Source: Aureispira anguillae
GTDB taxonomy: Bacteria; Bacteroidota; Bacteroidia; Chitinophagales; Saprospiraceae
DNA length: 64,000 nucleotides
Direction: 5' to 3'
NCBI RefSeq assembly: GCF_026000115.1
Contig: NZ_AP026867.1
Coordinates: forward strand, 2,713,716 to 2,777,715
Every line of letters begins with the position of its first letter. The stretch's first letter is position 1. The position numbers and the translations under genes are program-made. The notes under the pieces are model-generated. The model did not search any database, was not told the origin of the DNA, and saw only the letters and a list, made by a program, of their open reading frames with translations. Positions 22,201 through 27,978 of the stretch are shown here, piece by piece.

Positions 22201-23472
22201 ATGAAAATAGACAAGTTATACCTCAAAAATTTTAGAAATATTGAAGAAACTCATTATGAATTTCCAACTAATTTTACAGGTATTATTGGAATGAATGGTT
22301 CTGGGAAATCTACTATTTTACATGCACTTAGAGTAGCTGCTGGGGCTTATTTTATGGGTATACCTAACTCCCTAGCAAAAAACAGGCACATTTCTAAGGA
22401 TGAGGTTAGAATGACTAATAATAAAATCGAATTATTTCATCACCCTGTTATTGTTGAAGCAGAAGGACAATTTCCTGAGAATAACGCTCCTATTACTTGG
22501 CGTAGAAGAATACTAAAAGAAGGAGGTAGTAATACATCTTCTGTAGAAGATGTTGGTGCGATTAGAAATCTAGGGAGTGTGAAATATAATAAAATGAAAC
22601 GAGAGGGAACAGATGAACTTGATTTACCTGTAATCGCATATTTTGGAACGAATAGGGTATTTGGATCAGCAAGAAAACGGCAAAAAGCGAGAACTGGTCG
22701 TCAAATATTTAAAGAAGGGTACTACGATTGGCTAGATATGCGTTCATCTACCTATCAATATGCCCAGTGGTTGACAAGCTATGATGCCTTAGTAAAAAAT
22801 GGGAAAGAGTATTCTGAATCAAAGGAAACATTCTTTCAAACGATTAAAACAGCTTGCCCCTATGTTACAGACGTTGATTTTATTAGTGATCGTTTGTGGT
22901 TGCGTACTCAAATGAAGAGTCAAATCTCTGATTTACTCCCCTTGGAATTAAAAAGTGATGGGATTATTACTTTTGTTCAAATGATTGCAGAACTAGCCTA
23001 CCGCTGTATTATTTTAAATGGTTACCTAAAAGAAAAAGCCATTCTACAATCTAAAGGGATTGTCTTAATTGATGAAATTGATTTGCATTTGCATCCCAAA
23101 TGGCAAGAACATGTTGTAAAAGATCTAAAAAAGGCTTTTCCTAATATTCAATTTATTGTTACAACTCATTCTCCCATAATTGTACAAAGCTTGAAAGCTA
23201 ATGAATTAATTAATTTGGATTCGATAGCAGATGTCAATCCCAGCGACTTAACTTTAGGGGAAGTTGTTACTCACATCATGGGAAAAGACAGTGAACATAG
23301 TGAATCTAGTAATCAACAAGAACAATTAAGCAAAGAATATCTAACCCTCTTAAAACATCATTCTCTAGATGCTATTTCTGAACATTTAAATCAGATTGAG
23401 TTTAAGATTATAGATCCTTCTGTGAGGGCATTCTTAAAAATGCAGCGATTAGAAAAAAGAAGCAATAAATAA
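22201..23472 (+). CDS. AAA_15/AAA_21 (ABC-type) ATPase without a TOPRIM domain. It is PtuA-like (Septu defence system ATPase).
   Basis: Walker A is GMNGSGKST (aa 30-38). Walker B/D-loop is VLIDEIDLHLHP. The H-loop is TTHSP. Only about 100 aa follow the H-loop, so there is no nuclease domain. The gene is immediately followed by an HNH gene. Confidence 0.7.
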   Translation: MKIDKLYLKNFRNIEETHYEFPTNFTGIIGMNGSGKSTILHALRVAAGAYFMGIPNSLAKNRHISKDEVRMTNNKIELFHHPVIVEAEGQFPENNAPITWRRRILKEGGSNTSSVEDVGAIRNLGSVKYNKMKREGTDELDLPVIAYFGTNRVFGSARKRQKARTGRQIFKEGYYDWLDMRSSTYQYAQWLTSYDALVKNGKEYSESKETFFQTIKTACPYVTDVDFISDRLWLRTQMKSQISDLLPLELKSDGIITFVQMIAELAYRCIILNGYLKEKAILQSKGIVLIDEIDLHLHPKWQEHVVKDLKKAFPNIQFIVTTHSPIIVQSLKANELINLDSIADVNPSDLTLGEVVTHIMGKDSEHSESSNQQEQLSKEYLTLLKHHSLDAISEHLNQIEFKIIDPSVRAFLKMQRLEKRSNK

Positions 23473-23499: not shown

Positions 23500-24249
23500 A
23501 TGCGACCTATAGAAAGAGGAAACATCCCCAGAGATGATAATGATCAAATTATTACTGTTAGCAACCATCGTCAATGGAGAAAACATCTTATTGATAGAAT
23601 TGGAAAGTATTGTTCTTACTGCGAAATGGCTCTCTATGACAGCCCCCAAGTAGAGCATGTTATAGCACAAAACATAGATTCCTCTCGCAATCTTGATTGG
23701 GACAATTTGGTTCTAGCTTGTGGTCCTTGTAACAGAACAAAAAGTAATACTCCTTGTCCTCCTGAAACGCATTATTTACCTGATATTCACAATACATATC
23801 TAGCTTTTGGGCATTATCTAGGCAACAATACAAAAACTGGTGAGCCTGCTGCTTATATAACTACAAAATCATCATCCCATTCCCTAATGCAAATCGATAA
23901 GGCTATTAATACTATTAATTTATGTGGTCTTAACAAAGATACTAGTTCAGATGTGAGAACAGCATGTGACTTTAGGTGGAAATATCGCCTTGAAGCGATT
24001 ACTTCTGCCCTATTATGGAAACAAAAATGGGATGACTGGGGATCTCACAGTCATAGTCAAGATTTTATAAATCTATTATGTGATGCTGCTTTAGGAAAAG
24101 GCTTCTTTTCTATTTGGTTTTATATTTTTGAAGCAGAACCTAGTATTAAAAAATCTTTAATTGAAGCTTTCCCTAATACAGCATTAGATTGTTTTGATTC
24201 TAGTAATGACTACAACCCAGTGGCAAGAAATGCACCTGATGATATCTAA
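23500..24249 (+). CDS. HNH endonuclease. It is PtuB-like (Septu defence nuclease) with a ~170 aa C-terminal extension.
   Basis: The HNH motif is CSYCEMAL...VEHVIAQ...NLVLACGPCNRTKSN: a paired C-x2-C zinc knuckle, with His/Asn spaced as in HNH. The gene starts 27 bp after the ATPase stop on the same strand. Confidence 0.7.
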   Translation: MRPIERGNIPRDDNDQIITVSNHRQWRKHLIDRIGKYCSYCEMALYDSPQVEHVIAQNIDSSRNLDWDNLVLACGPCNRTKSNTPCPPETHYLPDIHNTYLAFGHYLGNNTKTGEPAAYITTKSSSHSLMQIDKAINTINLCGLNKDTSSDVRTACDFRWKYRLEAITSALLWKQKWDDWGSHSHSQDFINLLCDAALGKGFFSIWFYIFEAEPSIKKSLIEAFPNTALDCFDSSNDYNPVARNAPDDI

Positions 24250-24411
24250 AACTACAATTTATATCCTAAAATTGTTTAAAACTATACCTATCCGTCATTC
24301 CTCCATCAATCATCATTTCACATACTTGACAAACTAATAGCTTTCTTAAAAGCCCTCTCATATAACTATACTATATTTTCTTTCACTTTAAAACGTTAAC
24401 AAAAAGTTAAA

Positions 24412-24427
24412 AACAGACAAGTCTGTT
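24412..24427. promoter_or_regulatory. palindromic TetR-type operator AACAGAC-AA-GTCTGTT, 33 bp upstream of the tetR start (copy 1 of 3)
   Basis: 7-bp inverted arms with a 2-bp spacer. Near-identical copies lie at 25048-25065 and 25107-25124. Confidence 0.45.
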
Positions 24428-24459
24428 CTAATTGCAATCAAATTATATACATTTACAAT

Positions 24460-25020
24460 ATGAAAAAAACAAGTGTAAAAAATAGAATTATAGAAACAGC
24501 CTCCACACTGTTCTATCACAATGGATACAATCAAACAGGAATCAACCAAATCATTGCAGAAGCTGGCGTTTCCAAGTCTGGTATGTACCAACACTTCCGA
24601 TCAAAAGAAGATATTGCGGTTGCCTATTTGATTCGAAGACATAGCCTGTGGTTTGGCGACTTGTTTGATTTTATTGCTGACCAAAAATCCATAAAAGCCA
24701 AAATCCTAGCCGCTTTTGACTATTTAGATAGCTGGCTCAGTCAGGTTAGTTTTAGAGGCTGTGGCTTTCAAAATATTTTTATTGATTTGCCCAAAGACCA
24801 ACAAAAAATCAAAGATCAAGTTTTATTACACAAAAACGAATTGCGTGCTTGGCTCCATGGTTTATTAAATACAGAAGCACTGTATACCACAGAGGAAGCT
24901 ATTAAATTGGGTGATGAAATCTTAGTATTAATAGAGGGCGCCATCATCCTTTCTCAAATACAACATAATAATTGGCCCATTATTACAGCCAAAAATACGT
25001 GTAAAAAATTACTACTCTAA
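24460..25020 (+). CDS. TetR/AcrR family transcriptional regulator
   Basis: The N-terminal HTH signature is IIETASTLFYHNGYNQTGINQIIAEAGVSKSGMYQHFRSKEDI. Confidence 0.8.
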   Translation: MKKTSVKNRIIETASTLFYHNGYNQTGINQIIAEAGVSKSGMYQHFRSKEDIAVAYLIRRHSLWFGDLFDFIADQKSIKAKILAAFDYLDSWLSQVSFRGCGFQNIFIDLPKDQQKIKDQVLLHKNELRAWLHGLLNTEALYTTEEAIKLGDEILVLIEGAIILSQIQHNNWPIITAKNTCKKLLL

Positions 25021-25047
25021 TTGTGTAATTTTTTTTCGTCAAAAAAA

Positions 25048-25065
25048 GAACAGACTTGTCTGTAC
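25048..25065. promoter_or_regulatory. operator copy 2 (GAACAGACTTGTCTGTAC) between tetR and the downstream gene
   Basis: It has the same 15-bp core as copy 1, in inverted orientation. Confidence 0.45.
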
Positions 25066-25106
25066 TATTTTTTTTTAATGTCACAATATATTTTTCACTC
25101 AAAACA

Positions 25107-25124
25107 AACAGACTTCTCTGTACA
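25107..25124. promoter_or_regulatory. operator copy 3 (AAACAGACTTCTCTGTAC), one mismatch from copy 2. It ends 10 bp upstream of the ATG at 25135.
   Basis: It is a one-substitution variant of copy 2. Confidence 0.4.
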
Positions 25125-25134
25125 ATATTTAATT

Positions 25135-25557
25135 ATGAAAAATCTAATACCACCTTTTACCAAAGAAACAGCAACAGCAAAAGTTCAAGCAGCAGAAGAT
25201 GCTTGGAACAGTAAAGACCCTCATAAGGTTTCTTTGGCTTACACCGTTGACTCTCAATGGAGAAATAGAGGGCAGTTTTTTACAGGTAGAACGGCCATTG
25301 TAGAATTTCTAACAGACAAATGGAAAAAAGAACAACATTACAAATTAAAAAAGCACCTATGGTCCTATACCGACAATAGAATTTCGGTTCGCTTTGAATA
25401 TGAATGGCAAAACCCAGAAACAGGACAATGGATGCGTACCCATGGAAATGAACACTGGGAATTTGATAAGGCAGGGAAAATGCAGGTCAGAGACATGAGT
25501 GCCAATGACATTAGAATAAAGGAATCTGACAGAAAATTTAAATCATCATCTTTTTAA
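25135..25557 (+). CDS. DUF1348 / SnoaL-like (NTF2 fold) protein. The track ORF is trimmed to the Met at 25135, because the upstream part translates the operator region.
   Basis: The sequence [29 protein letters not shown]...[11 protein letters not shown] follows the DUF1348 pattern. Confidence 0.6.
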
Positions 25558-25566
25558 TAAAACAAA

Positions 25567-26451
25567 ATGACAACATCTATCCAAACTCAAGCCACACTCC
25601 ACCAAACAATTGAGGTAAGTGGCATCAATTTATTTTATAGAGAAGCAGGAAATCCCGATAAGCCAACTCTTGTATTGTTACACGGTTATCCTACCTCCTC
25701 CCATATGTTTCGCAATTTAATTGATCGGTTGGCCAACCAATATCATATCCTCGCTCCCGATTATCCTGGTTTTGGGAGAAGTGAACAACCTCCAATCAAA
25801 GATTTTGACTATAGCTTTGAGCATATGGCAATTATAATTGAAGATTTTTTAGCAAAAAAAGCGATAAACCAATACAGTTTATACCTAATGGATTATGGTG
25901 CTCCAATCGGGTTTAGAATTGCCTCAAAATATCCAGATCGAATTGAGTCTTTGATTATTCAAAATGGAAATGCCTATGAAGAAGGTTTAGCTGACTTTTG
26001 GGTTCCCATCAAAAAATATTGGGCTGATTATACCTTAGCCAATGGAAAACCCTTAGAAGCCTTCCATGCTCTAGACGGCTTAATATGGCAATACACACAT
26101 GGCGTACAAGATGTTTCTAAAATTAGCCCAGACAACTGGCACCTAGATTTACAACACTTGAGCAGACCAGAGAATAATGAAATTCAGCTCGCCATGTTTT
26201 ATGATTATAGAACCAATGTTCCATTATACCCCAAATGGCAGCAATATTTTAGAGAGCATCAACCCCCAACCTTGATTGTCTGGGGAAAAAATGATTATAT
26301 ATTTCCGCCTGAAGGAGCACATCCCTATAAAAGAGACTTAGAAAAGGCTGAAATTCACCTATTAGACACAGGGCATTTCGCTCTAGAAGAAAAAGGCCAT
26401 GAAATAGCAAACTACATTTTGACGTTTTTAAAAAAGCATAAAATTAGCTAA
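25567..26451 (+). CDS. alpha/beta-hydrolase, epoxide hydrolase/haloalkane dehalogenase-like
   Basis: HGYPTSSHMFRNLI (HGxP oxyanion motif), a nucleophile elbow region, and a C-terminal His are present. Confidence 0.7.
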   Translation: MTTSIQTQATLHQTIEVSGINLFYREAGNPDKPTLVLLHGYPTSSHMFRNLIDRLANQYHILAPDYPGFGRSEQPPIKDFDYSFEHMAIIIEDFLAKKAINQYSLYLMDYGAPIGFRIASKYPDRIESLIIQNGNAYEEGLADFWVPIKKYWADYTLANGKPLEAFHALDGLIWQYTHGVQDVSKISPDNWHLDLQHLSRPENNEIQLAMFYDYRTNVPLYPKWQQYFREHQPPTLIVWGKNDYIFPPEGAHPYKRDLEKAEIHLLDTGHFALEEKGHEIANYILTFLKKHKIS

Positions 26452-26637
26452 ACTAAGCATAAAAATAGCATCGTTTAAACAATCAAAGAGAGGCATCGGA
26501 TTATTCCGCTTGTCTCTTTCTGTTAATTAGAAACTTACTAAGCCATTTAGAATGAACATTTAAAGCGAGTCTCTGTTGAAGAAGTGAAATAATTTTATAG
26601 TTTTACCATCCACAATAACCAACATCACTATATATTT

Positions 26638-27978
26638 ATGCATTCCAATGAGTTAGGTACCGAAAAAATCGACAAACTTATTGCTCAACAAGGCATTCCT
26701 GCTGCAATTGGCTTTTTAGTTATGTCTATTTATATGATTGTAGATACTATATTTATAGGACATTGGGTAGGCTCTTTGGGCATTGCAGCCATCACTGTTG
26801 TTCTACCAATTACATTTTTAATTGCCTCTTTTGGAATGTCAATTGGAATTGGGGGAGCATCTGTGATTTCAAGAGCATTGGGTGCAAATGACGAGCCGCA
26901 TGCTCAAAAAGTTTTTGGCAATCAGATTACGCTAACGATGGCGATTGCCTTGTTTTTTGTTTTGGTAGGGCTGTTTTTTGAGGAAGAATTATTGCTCCTA
27001 TTTGGTGCCCAAGGAGCAATTATGCCCCACGCCAAAGCCTATTTTAAGATCATTTTACTAGGAGTTCCCTTTTTGTCTTGGGCAATGATGAGCAACCATG
27101 TAATCCGAGCACAAGGTTTTCCCAAAATAGCAATGAATGTAATGTTACTTCCTGCTATTCTAAATCTAATCTTGGACCCTATTTTTATTTATATACTAGA
27201 CTGGGGTTTGGAGGGGGCAGCCTTAGCAACAATTATTTCCTATTTTGCTAGTGCCCTTTATACCTTGTGGTTCTTTATCAAAGGCGAAAGTGATTTAAAA
27301 ATCAGACGCCAAATCCTGCATTTAGAGTTTTCTACCGTCAAAGAAATTGCAGCATTAGGTTTTGTTTCCTTGGCACGCCAAGGAGTTATTAGCCTTCTAT
27401 CAATTATTCTAAATCATTCGCTTTATACCTACGGCAGTGAGGTTTATATTTCTGTTTATGGAATCATCAATCGAGTAATGATGTTTAGTATGTTTCCAAT
27501 TACAGGCATTACACAAGGTTTTTTGCCAATCACTAGTTATAATTTTGGAGCCAACCAATACGATCGAGTCAAAGAAACCATCCGAAAATCCATTGGTTAT
27601 GGAAGTGTAATTGCCATTTCTATTTATGCCATAATTCTATTTTTCCGAACACCAATTGTTCAAATTTTTTCTTCAGAAGAACAAATTTTAGCCGTTACAC
27701 CAGAAGCCATGACAATTGTTTTTATGGCAACTCCCTTCATCTTAATTCAATTGATTGGTTCCTCTTATTATCAAGCCATTGGCAAAGCCATGCCAGCTTT
27801 GCTATTAACGCTAACCAAACAAGGTTTTTTCTTGATTCCATTGGTGTATATTCTGCCCAAATTTTGGGGCATCTATGGCATTTGGTATGCGTTTCCGATT
27901 GCTGATATATTGTCTACAATTGTGACCTTTGTATTTCTTCGACGGGCCTATCGCTCACTAGGCAAAAGCCCTCAATAA
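26638..27978 (+). CDS. MATE family efflux transporter
   Basis: 12 TM helices, 446 aa. The N-terminal region reads GIPAAIGFLVMSIYMIVDTIFIGHWVGSLGIAAI, which is MATE-like. Confidence 0.8.
   Translation: MHSNELGTEKIDKLIAQQGIPAAIGFLVMSIYMIVDTIFIGHWVGSLGIAAITVVLPITFLIASFGMSIGIGGASVISRALGANDEPHAQKVFGNQITLTMAIALFFVLVGLFFEEELLLLFGAQGAIMPHAKAYFKIILLGVPFLSWAMMSNHVIRAQGFPKIAMNVMLLPAILNLILDPIFIYILDWGLEGAALATIISYFASALYTLWFFIKGESDLKIRRQILHLEFSTVKEIAALGFVSLARQGVISLLSIILNHSLYTYGSEVYISVYGIINRVMMFSMFPITGITQGFLPITSYNFGANQYDRVKETIRKSIGYGSVIAISIYAIILFFRTPIVQIFSSEEQILAVTPEAMTIVFMATPFILIQLIGSSYYQAIGKAMPALLLTLTKQGFFLIPLVYILPKFWGIYGIWYAFPIADILSTIVTFVFLRRAYRSLGKSPQ

Follow-up and report, generated by a model that had tools for sequence, protein, structure and literature searches.

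Which regulator acts at a palindrome found three times around a tetR gene of Aureispira anguillae (Saprospiraceae, Bacteroidota), and which genes would be under its control? The question was raised by a 64-kb stretch of DNA from this organism, called hereafter the window, in which an initial annotation had noticed copies of one inverted repeat on both sides of a gene for a TetR-family regulator, followed by genes for a DUF1348 protein, an alpha/beta hydrolase and a MATE transporter. From the comparison of the window with orthologous loci, we consider it highly probable that the three palindromes are the operators of the adjacent TetR-family repressor, which would control its own gene, the DUF1348 gene and the hydrolase gene.

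Three palindromic sites and their conservation

The three announced copies of the palindrome were found close to tetR and DUF1348 at the positions given in Table 1, and their consensus is the 16-bp sequence AACAGAC-NN-GTCTGTT. The window was searched with the pattern AACAGACNNGTCTGTW, at most one mismatch being allowed, and 100 dinucleotide shuffles were used as control. Three matches and no others were detected in the 64 kb, the shuffle mean was 0.02 and none of the 100 shuffles reached the observed number. This one-mismatch test replaced a motif test with three mismatches, which was too lenient alone (0.91 matches expected). Operator O1 is separated from the tetR ATG (24460) by 32 nt and O2b from the DUF1348 ATG (25135) by 12 nt, the canonical position; the 114-nt spacer between tetR and DUF1348 contains both O2a and O2b. 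The opposite orientation ascribed to the second copy was confirmed, since sites 1 and 2 together make up a perfect inverted repeat of 17 nt, and it rests on the central dinucleotide (AA vs TT, at 24419-24420 in O1 and 25056-25057 in O2a) and on one flanking triplet. The single substitution reported for site 3 is real and corresponds to a G to C change at 25116; it does not fall in the central spacer, as had been stated, but on the first base of the right half-site. The identities proposed for the tetR, DUF1348, hydrolase and MATE genes were upheld by Pfam, with the E-values of Table 1.

An alignment of 30 TetR homologues was scanned against one genome per GTDB species. A relative of TetR is encoded in 106 loci, and the best 80 of the 106 (L001-L080; 56-71% identity) were analyzed as orthologous loci. 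They belong mostly to Flavobacteriaceae, plus one Saprospiraceae metagenome-assembled genome (MAG) and Flexithrix. L034 is a typical flavobacterial cassette on a contig labelled as a Halioglobus (Gammaproteobacteria) MAG, and this contig is probably mis-binned. In almost all of the 80 loci, the palindrome was found about 44 nt upstream of the tetR ATG and again 20-100 nt past the tetR stop codon, the second site invariably separating tetR from the first target gene. When no more than one mismatch was tolerated in the 12 specified core bases, 230 sites were counted in the 624 kb of orthologous loci vs 1 after shuffling. A position matrix built from 237 sites revealed that ACAGAC and GTCTGT are near-invariant and that the flanks favour A/T. 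Clustering of the open reading frames (ORFs) gave a fixed order in these loci, i.e. operator, tetR, operator, DUF1348 and alpha/beta hydrolase. The presence of the same palindrome at the same two positions in essentially all 80 loci strongly supports the proposal that TetR would regulate its own synthesis and repress the DUF1348 and hydrolase genes.

The exact 16-mer AACAGACTTGTCTGTA was also used to scan metagenomes. At least 120 contigs matched, and among the 120 listed 33 carry a TetR homologue or a regulon gene adjoining the site, a number far above the random expectation for a 16-mer, and the remaining matches look like chance in a very large collection. Some of the TetR proteins encoded near these operators are only 33-44% identical to that of the window and two of them lie on contigs of 66-69% G+C; the helix VAK[AS]SLYQHF of the helix-turn-helix motif is kept in all the operator-linked distant TetRs. 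In some of the 33 loci, the target is a short-chain dehydrogenase or a PNPOx-like protein. These linked contigs and the lack of any other match in the window argue against a widespread repeat unrelated to TetR genes. Two tandem TetR paralogues of 184 and 179 residues were observed in the metagenome contig L106 (50-1303), with a perfect operator before each of them and a third copy after.

Table 1. Position and description of the elements of the tetR locus within the window.
Feature	Position	Strand	Description
GTTAA-N6-GTTAA direct repeat	24395-24410	+	11-bp period; sole occurrence in the window
Operator O1 (site 1) AACAGACAAGTCTGTT	24412-24427	no strand	perfect 7+2+7 palindrome in the tetR promoter
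Predicted sigma-A -7 box TACATTTA	24448-24455	+	consensus TAnnTTTG; ends 4 nt before the tetR ATG
tetR	24460-25020	+	186 aa; invariant Gly100-Cys101; TetR_N, E 1.7e-14
A/U-rich hairpin	24997-25039	+	over the tetR stop codon, with U8 run; -8.5 kcal/mol, z -3.0
Two tandem units	25027-25077 and 25085-25135	+	58-nt period; one operator each; 73% identity over 51 nt
Operator O2a (site 2) AACAGACTTGTCTGTA	25049-25064	no strand	distal copy before DUF1348
Operator O2b (site 3) AACAGACTTCTCTGTA	25107-25122	no strand	proximal copy, one mismatch
DUF1348 gene	25135-25557	+	SnoaL/NTF2-like; first target (predicted); Pfam E 6.7e-61
Alpha/beta hydrolase gene	25567-26451	+	Asp nucleophile, haloalkane-dehalogenase/epoxide-hydrolase type; second target (predicted); Abhydrolase_1, E 1.9e-30
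Strong hairpin	26484-26522	+	after the hydrolase gene; -17 kcal/mol, z -4.5; 0/200 shuffles fold as well
MATE transporter gene	26638-27978	+	MatE, E 1.4e-51; 186-nt gap after the hydrolase gene

Promoter, target genes and additional operators

The motif TAnnTTTG is the sigma-A -7 box of Bacteroidota and spans positions -12 to -5 in flavobacteria (PMC9723704). This consensus was used here instead of a sigma-70 promoter and terminator scan, which is uninformative for Bacteroidota. Because the -7 box of the window ends 4 nt before the ATG, the tetR mRNA is predicted to be leaderless and to start at or beside the A of the ATG, as do the about 5.5% of mRNAs that form the leaderless class in Flavobacterium psychrophilum (PMC9723704). 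The orthologues share the layout GTTAA-N6-GTTAA, 6 nt, ACAGAC-NN-GTCTGT, about 17 nt, TAnnTTTG, 4 nt and ATG, and the last part (TAnnTTTG, 4 nt, ATG) is also kept in distant homologues. Between the end of the O1 core and the tetR ATG there are 29-30 nt in most of the 80 loci and 33 nt in the window, and the distance between O1 and the -7 box is 17 nt in the orthologues and 21 nt in the window. The O1 of the window is consequently placed 4 nt further upstream than usual and has the minority AA centre, shared by about 10 loci; the closest relative, L201, is arranged likewise. O1 would cover the -33 region, as operators of autorepressed genes usually do.

The first element of this layout, the GTTAA direct repeat, was found 60 times in the 624 kb of orthologous loci, and 59 of these occurrences are at the tetR promoter, usually 22 nt before the O1 core. 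The repeat is separated from the -7 box by 53 nt in the window, a distance identical to the usual one in the orthologues (22+14+17 nt). It is absent from distant TetR loci, which still keep the geometry between operator and ATG, suggesting that it is an add-on specific to this group of orthologues. It may serve as an UP-like element or be bound by a second factor. Direct repeats with a period of 11 bp are typical of response-regulator sites. On the other strand, the repeat reads TTAAC-N6-TTAAC.

A DUF1348 homologue follows O2 directly in 75 of 81 loci, and a homologue of the alpha/beta hydrolase is present in 69. The start of DUF1348 at 25135 agrees with the N-termini of its orthologues (MKNLIPPF). 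Another in-frame ATG was observed at 25078, 14 nt past O2a, where it mirrors the spacing between O2b and the ATG at 25135; a start at this position would extend DUF1348 by 19 residues. The two tandem units of Table 1 are a duplicated operator region, and the ATG at 25078 is probably a by-product of this 58-nt duplication. The hydrolase displays an HGxP oxyanion motif (HGYP), an Asp nucleophile and a C-terminal catalytic His; its MDYGAP and TGHF segments align, respectively, with HDWGGP and VGHY of the top PDB match, 8ckp. Its best named matches are haloalkane dehalogenases and soluble epoxide hydrolases. All its NCBIfam matches are far below the cut-offs (e.g. 102 bits vs 241) and none is at the equivalog level. 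In the orthologous loci, DUF1348 and the hydrolase gene are often separated by a CMD/AhpD-like or isochorismatase-like gene, and the hydrolase gene is often followed by genes for a DUF2938-like membrane protein, a cytidine-deaminase-like and a PNPOx-like protein, sometimes also by a GAPDH gene. No homologue of the CMD, isochorismatase-like, DUF2938-like, deaminase, PNPOx-like or GAPDH genes was found in the 64-kb window. The hydrolase ORF of L005 (5360-6988), L059 (2087-3694) and L071 (3972-5579) codes for 535-542 residues, about 210 more than usual, suggesting a fusion with an additional domain.

From the end of the proximal operator core to the ATG of the first target, the distance is 13-18 nt in most loci and 13 nt in the window. 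A T-run located 12-15 nt before O2 is conserved in the orthologues. In some loci this T-run is clearly the tail of a GC-rich terminator hairpin and elsewhere it reads TAatTTTT, often over the tetR stop codon, and may represent a weak -7-like box or the tail of a terminator. At the end of tetR, before O2, a clear hairpin with a T-run was seen in several orthologous loci; the A/U-rich hairpin found over the tetR stop codon of the window is a possible weak terminator. The strong hairpin located after the hydrolase gene is the probable 3' boundary of the regulated unit.

The MATE gene lies beyond this hairpin, and its proposed membership of the regulon was not borne out. Neither an operator nor a half-site was detected near the gene, the -17 kcal/mol hairpin separates it from the hydrolase gene, and none of the 80 orthologous loci has a MATE homologue within 4 kb. 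In the closest relative, L201, the orthologous MATE gene (80.6% amino acid identity) precedes tetR in the same orientation and lies clear of the three operators. On these data, the transporter gene is a neighbour in this lineage and not a supported target. The match extends from 545 to 1874 in L201 and from 26636 to 27965 in the window, i.e. on opposite sides of the tetR cassette, and a local rearrangement has moved either the MATE gene or the cassette.

Two intergenic operators were found in 9 loci including the window, the first being located 20-30 nt past the tetR stop codon and followed by the second at 58-73 nt. The two intergenic operators of the closest relative (L201-L203; 82% identity for TetR and about 77% for DNA) are only 30 nt apart. 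In 60 of the 69 orthologous hydrolase genes, a perfect operator was detected 249-258 nt into the coding sequence (for instance at 5927-5940 in L017 and 6759-6772 in L010), where it encodes Thr-Asp-Leu-Ser-Val (TDLSV). The codons of this intragenic operator are frozen, with ACA in 59/59, GAC in 60/60 and TCT in 59/60 genes. By comparison, GAT is the codon of a nearby invariant Asp in 57 of 60 genes, vs the fixed GAC inside the operator, and the codons of flanking invariant Thr, Ser, Pro and Gly residues vary, with a codon entropy of 1.4-1.8 bits. The 9 hydrolase genes devoid of the intragenic site encode other residues at this place (DRLAN in the window). As the codons are frozen and the residues differ in the genes without a site, the operator probably shapes the protein sequence in the genomes that carry it.

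The double intergenic arrangement was observed in 4 of the 9 loci without an intragenic site vs 5 of the 60 with one (Fisher p = 0.013, a value that ignores phylogeny). This suggests a general need for a second site at or beyond the start of the targets, which the window would satisfy by duplication. Auxiliary intragenic operators are known, such as lac O2 in lacZ and the PurR site in purB. The orthologous hydrolase genes resemble these cases by an operator about 250 nt inside the coding sequence, and the window differs from them by having no intragenic operator. Inside a coding sequence, an operator can act only as a roadblock or an auxiliary site. A phased loop between the intragenic operator and O2 is unlikely because the distance between them is not fixed (0.7-2.2 kb), and to our knowledge TetR proteins are not known as looping tetramers. 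Since the spacing of the sites is not conserved, an independent "double lock" or roadblock action is favoured over a phased loop. An internal promoter downstream of the intragenic operator was ruled out, as no TAnnTTTG box was found at an O1-like distance past it in the orthologues.

The regulator, its probable mode of action and the alternatives

The TetR protein was identified by PF00440 (TetR_N), which matches residues 10-55 with 53.8 bits vs a cut-off of 24, and its sequence is 100% identical to that of a protein of A. anguillae. Its AlphaFold2 (AF2) model has nine helices arranged in a two-domain all-helical fold, with a pLDDT (predicted local distance difference test) of 87.7. A Foldseek search of this model gave 167 PDB matches at E<=0.001, and the best 50 of the 167 are all TetR-family regulators with template modelling (TM) scores of 0.60-0.84, including NemR, AcuR, QacR and YxaF at 0.75-0.84. 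No NCBIfam equivalog cut-off was reached, the best full-length scores being 38 bits for AcuR (cut-off 247) and 37 bits for CurR (cut-off 300). A PDB search with the ligand-binding half alone gave one weak match and nothing on a ligand. We regard the protein as an uncharacterised TetR whose operator module is deeply conserved.

Most likely, a dimer of TetR binds each of the 16-bp AACAGAC-NN-GTCTGTT sites. Bound at O1, between the GTTAA repeat and the -7 box and over the -33 region, the repressor would switch off its own, probably leaderless, transcript. Bound at O2a and O2b, it would block a polymerase starting locally or reading through from tetR, and the DUF1348 and hydrolase genes would be kept off; since an operator lies between any promoter and the DUF1348 start, initiation or early elongation would be blocked. 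With two O2 sites, the enzymes would be repressed more tightly than the regulator itself, and the repressor would be released by a small molecule. As inducer we would first suspect an electrophile that acts at Cys101, for example an epoxide, a quinone or an unsaturated carbonyl, and in second place an aromatic or flavonoid-like compound bound reversibly.

Several observations do not fit this scheme easily and weigh against it. The mismatch in O2b falls on a conserved base, which is a G in 228 of the 237 orthologous sites, so that O2b is probably the weakest of the three sites. The doubled operators are 58 nt apart in the window, 30 nt in L201 and 64-73 nt in other loci, a variation that argues against a fixed cooperative geometry. 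No TAnnTTTG box was found between O2 and the DUF1348 ATG, and the promoter of the targets was not located. In 216 of 237 sites, the 2-bp spacer of the operator reads YT when taken on the sense strand of the gene that follows, a strand bias that is not explained by a symmetric dimer and may reflect promoter constraints. Finally, the Gly-Cys pair of the regulator could be structural, and QdoR, the closest relative by operator, has an Ile at this position.

The palindromes could also belong to a transcription factor other than the adjacent TetR, which would then have a different operator. The conserved GTTAA-N6-GTTAA element indeed implies that another factor or feature is present at the tetR promoter. 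We nevertheless judge this explanation very improbable, because the palindrome travels with TetR homologues of 33-82% identity and varied G+C content while the neighbouring genes change, because its dimensions (14-16 bp, arms of 6-7 bp and a 2-bp spacer) are those of the standard footprint of a single TetR dimer (PMC10827105), and because its core equals the box of the related QdoR/LmrA repressors. The idea that the repeats act as RNA hairpins, in terminators or attenuators, deserves still less credit. It is best illustrated by site 2, which has A-run and T-run flanks, folds with them at -6.3 kcal/mol before a U-run, and could be taken as the tetR terminator. The palindrome alone is a weak hairpin (-3.8 to -3.9 kcal/mol; z -1.2 for site 2), the loop dinucleotide leaves only 5 base pairs and the terminator scan did not detect the repeats. 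Moreover, the same sequence is found in an untranscribed position ahead of the tetR promoter, and in orthologues also within a coding region, and several loci have a separate proper hairpin and T-run before O2.

The 17-nt inverted repeat could alternatively mark the ends of a small mobile or invertible cassette, as terminal repeats or recombinase sites. Its two copies, ACAGACAAGTCTGTTCT and AGAACAGACTTGTCTGT, are 100% complementary and bracket tetR, a defence system adjoins the cassette, and the cassette is most similar to Flavobacteriia versions though its host belongs to Saprospiria. The inverted repeat, however, amounts to the palindrome and three flanking bases, and the flanks of the orthologous sites do not extend it; besides, the third copy in the window and the intragenic copies of the orthologues misfit the ends of an element. 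Of all the explanations considered, this is the one we find hardest to believe, and a mobile element bounded by the inverted repeat was ruled out owing to the lack of any transposase or recombinase nearby, the extra copies and the absence of a G+C anomaly.

With the palindromes read as TetR operators, two kinds of inducer were considered. The pair Gly100-Cys101 is invariant in 30 orthologues and in all 10 distant homologues with the operator; it lies just before the short helix 102-107 of the AF2 model and aligns exactly with Gly105-Cys106 of Escherichia coli NemR, whose sequence was verified against PDB 4yze before alignment. NemR has its Gly-Cys pair before helix alpha6 and matches the model at TM 0.78-0.82, with only 23% identity to the TetR of the window. 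In Pseudomonas aeruginosa, CifR is an epoxide sensor with an essential Gly106-Cys107 pair; it controls an epoxide hydrolase through two operator sites, which are long (26-27 bp) and weakly symmetric, and is divergent from its targets (PMC10827105). The likeness to CifR concerns the position of the Gly-Cys pair, judged by comparing the model with the published description of CifR, and the epoxide-hydrolase type of the target; CifR differs from the present system by divergent genes and long operators, vs co-directional genes and short perfect palindromes here. Because the Gly-Cys pair matches those of NemR and CifR and the main target is of the epoxide-hydrolase/dehalogenase type, the sensing of electrophiles via Cys101 is a reasonable mechanism, which we put forward tentatively, its chances being somewhat short of even.

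Slightly less weight is given to the same operators answering to a reversibly bound aromatic or flavonoid-like compound instead of an electrophile that modifies Cys101, as the comparison with LmrA and QdoR (YxaF) of Bacillus subtilis would suggest. The boxes of these repressors, TATAGACTGGTCTATA and TATAGAACGGTCTA, occur once at the promoter of the regulator and twice at that of the target; the doubled box leads to tighter repression and the single one keeps the repressor expressed (PMC8481877). The present system resembles theirs by a TetR-family repressor, by the core AGAC-NN-GTCT with its 2-bp spacer (TATAGACTGGTCTATA vs AACAGACTTGTCTGTT), by one box at the regulator and two at the target, and by targets that are enzymes modifying small molecules. 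QdoR is 29% identical to the TetR of the window (BLASTP, E 6e-12) and its helix-turn-helix is very similar. The domain PF21993 (TetR_C_13_2, LmrA/YxaF-like) is listed by precomputed Pfam for most orthologues and scores 24.2 bits in the window protein vs a cut-off of 27. The SnoaL-like, alpha/beta hydrolase, CMD, isochorismatase-like and PNPOx-like enzymes would likewise suit the catabolism of aromatic compounds. There are also differences: the outer bases of the half-site are ACAGAC here and ATAGAC there, the box spacing is 58 bp in the window and 32 bp there, and the targets of LmrA/QdoR are a quercetin dioxygenase and an efflux pump in place of DUF1348 and an Asp-nucleophile hydrolase. The phylum and the promoters differ too, with sigma-70 -35/-10 elements there vs Bacteroidota -33/-7 elements here, and no flavonoid-degrading enzyme such as quercetin dioxygenase was found in the locus. 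Against an aromatic inducer stands the Gly-Cys pair, which is invariant in every operator-linked homologue and coincides with the sensing Cys of NemR, whereas QdoR lacks this Cys. The module is like LmrA/QdoR in its site layout and probably in its DNA recognition, and it may be like NemR/CifR in sensing.

Genomic setting and significance

Directly upstream of tetR, a Septu anti-phage pair was observed, composed of PtuA (AAA ATPase, 22201-23472) and PtuB (HNH nuclease, 23500-24249), which match the PADLOC models with E-values of 3.5e-100 and 1.3e-56, respectively. The closest relative has the MATE gene where the window has the Septu pair, and the pair looks like an insertion or replacement in the window. 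The products of the cassette (24460-26451) share 69-71% (TetR), 80-82% (DUF1348) and 75-77% (hydrolase) identity with those of Polaribacter and Tenacibaculum. The DUF1348 of the Saprospiraceae MAG locus L005 is 69% identical, below the Polaribacter and Tenacibaculum values, which hints at a transfer of the cassette between classes of Bacteroidota; the G+C profile around the cassette has no anomaly. A literature search with the operator strings gave no relevant match, and the only functional link of DUF1348 found in the literature searched is cercosporin resistance in the fungus Cercospora (PMC4608573).

The logic of the switch, with a TetR, a palindromic operator, autorepression and a doubled target site, is ordinary and textbook. 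Its most unusual aspects are the codon-locked intragenic operator of the relatives, the conserved GTTAA repeat and the strand-biased spacer. A broader possibility, which we hold as doubtful, is that the locus is the Aureispira version of an undescribed but widespread stress regulon of marine Bacteroidota, in which an electrophile-sensing TetR, with a NemR/CifR-like Cys, would free a fixed detoxification set under the added influence of an extra operator and of a second factor at the GTTAA repeat. If so, this set would consist of DUF1348 and the epoxide-hydrolase-like enzyme, to which the relatives would add AhpD-like, isochorismatase-like and PNPOx-like proteins and a spare GAPDH. The extra operator would tighten the system, being placed either inside the hydrolase coding sequence, where it would fix TDLSV, or upstream as a duplicate, as in the window.

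Very few transcription-factor sites are known in Bacteroidota, and the present data would provide a precise operator and a minimal regulon for a TetR subfamily present in more than 100 marine species of this phylum. DUF1348 would gain a regulatory context, and the orthologous hydrolase genes would be a clear natural example of an operator that, being embedded in a gene, constrains the protein sequence.

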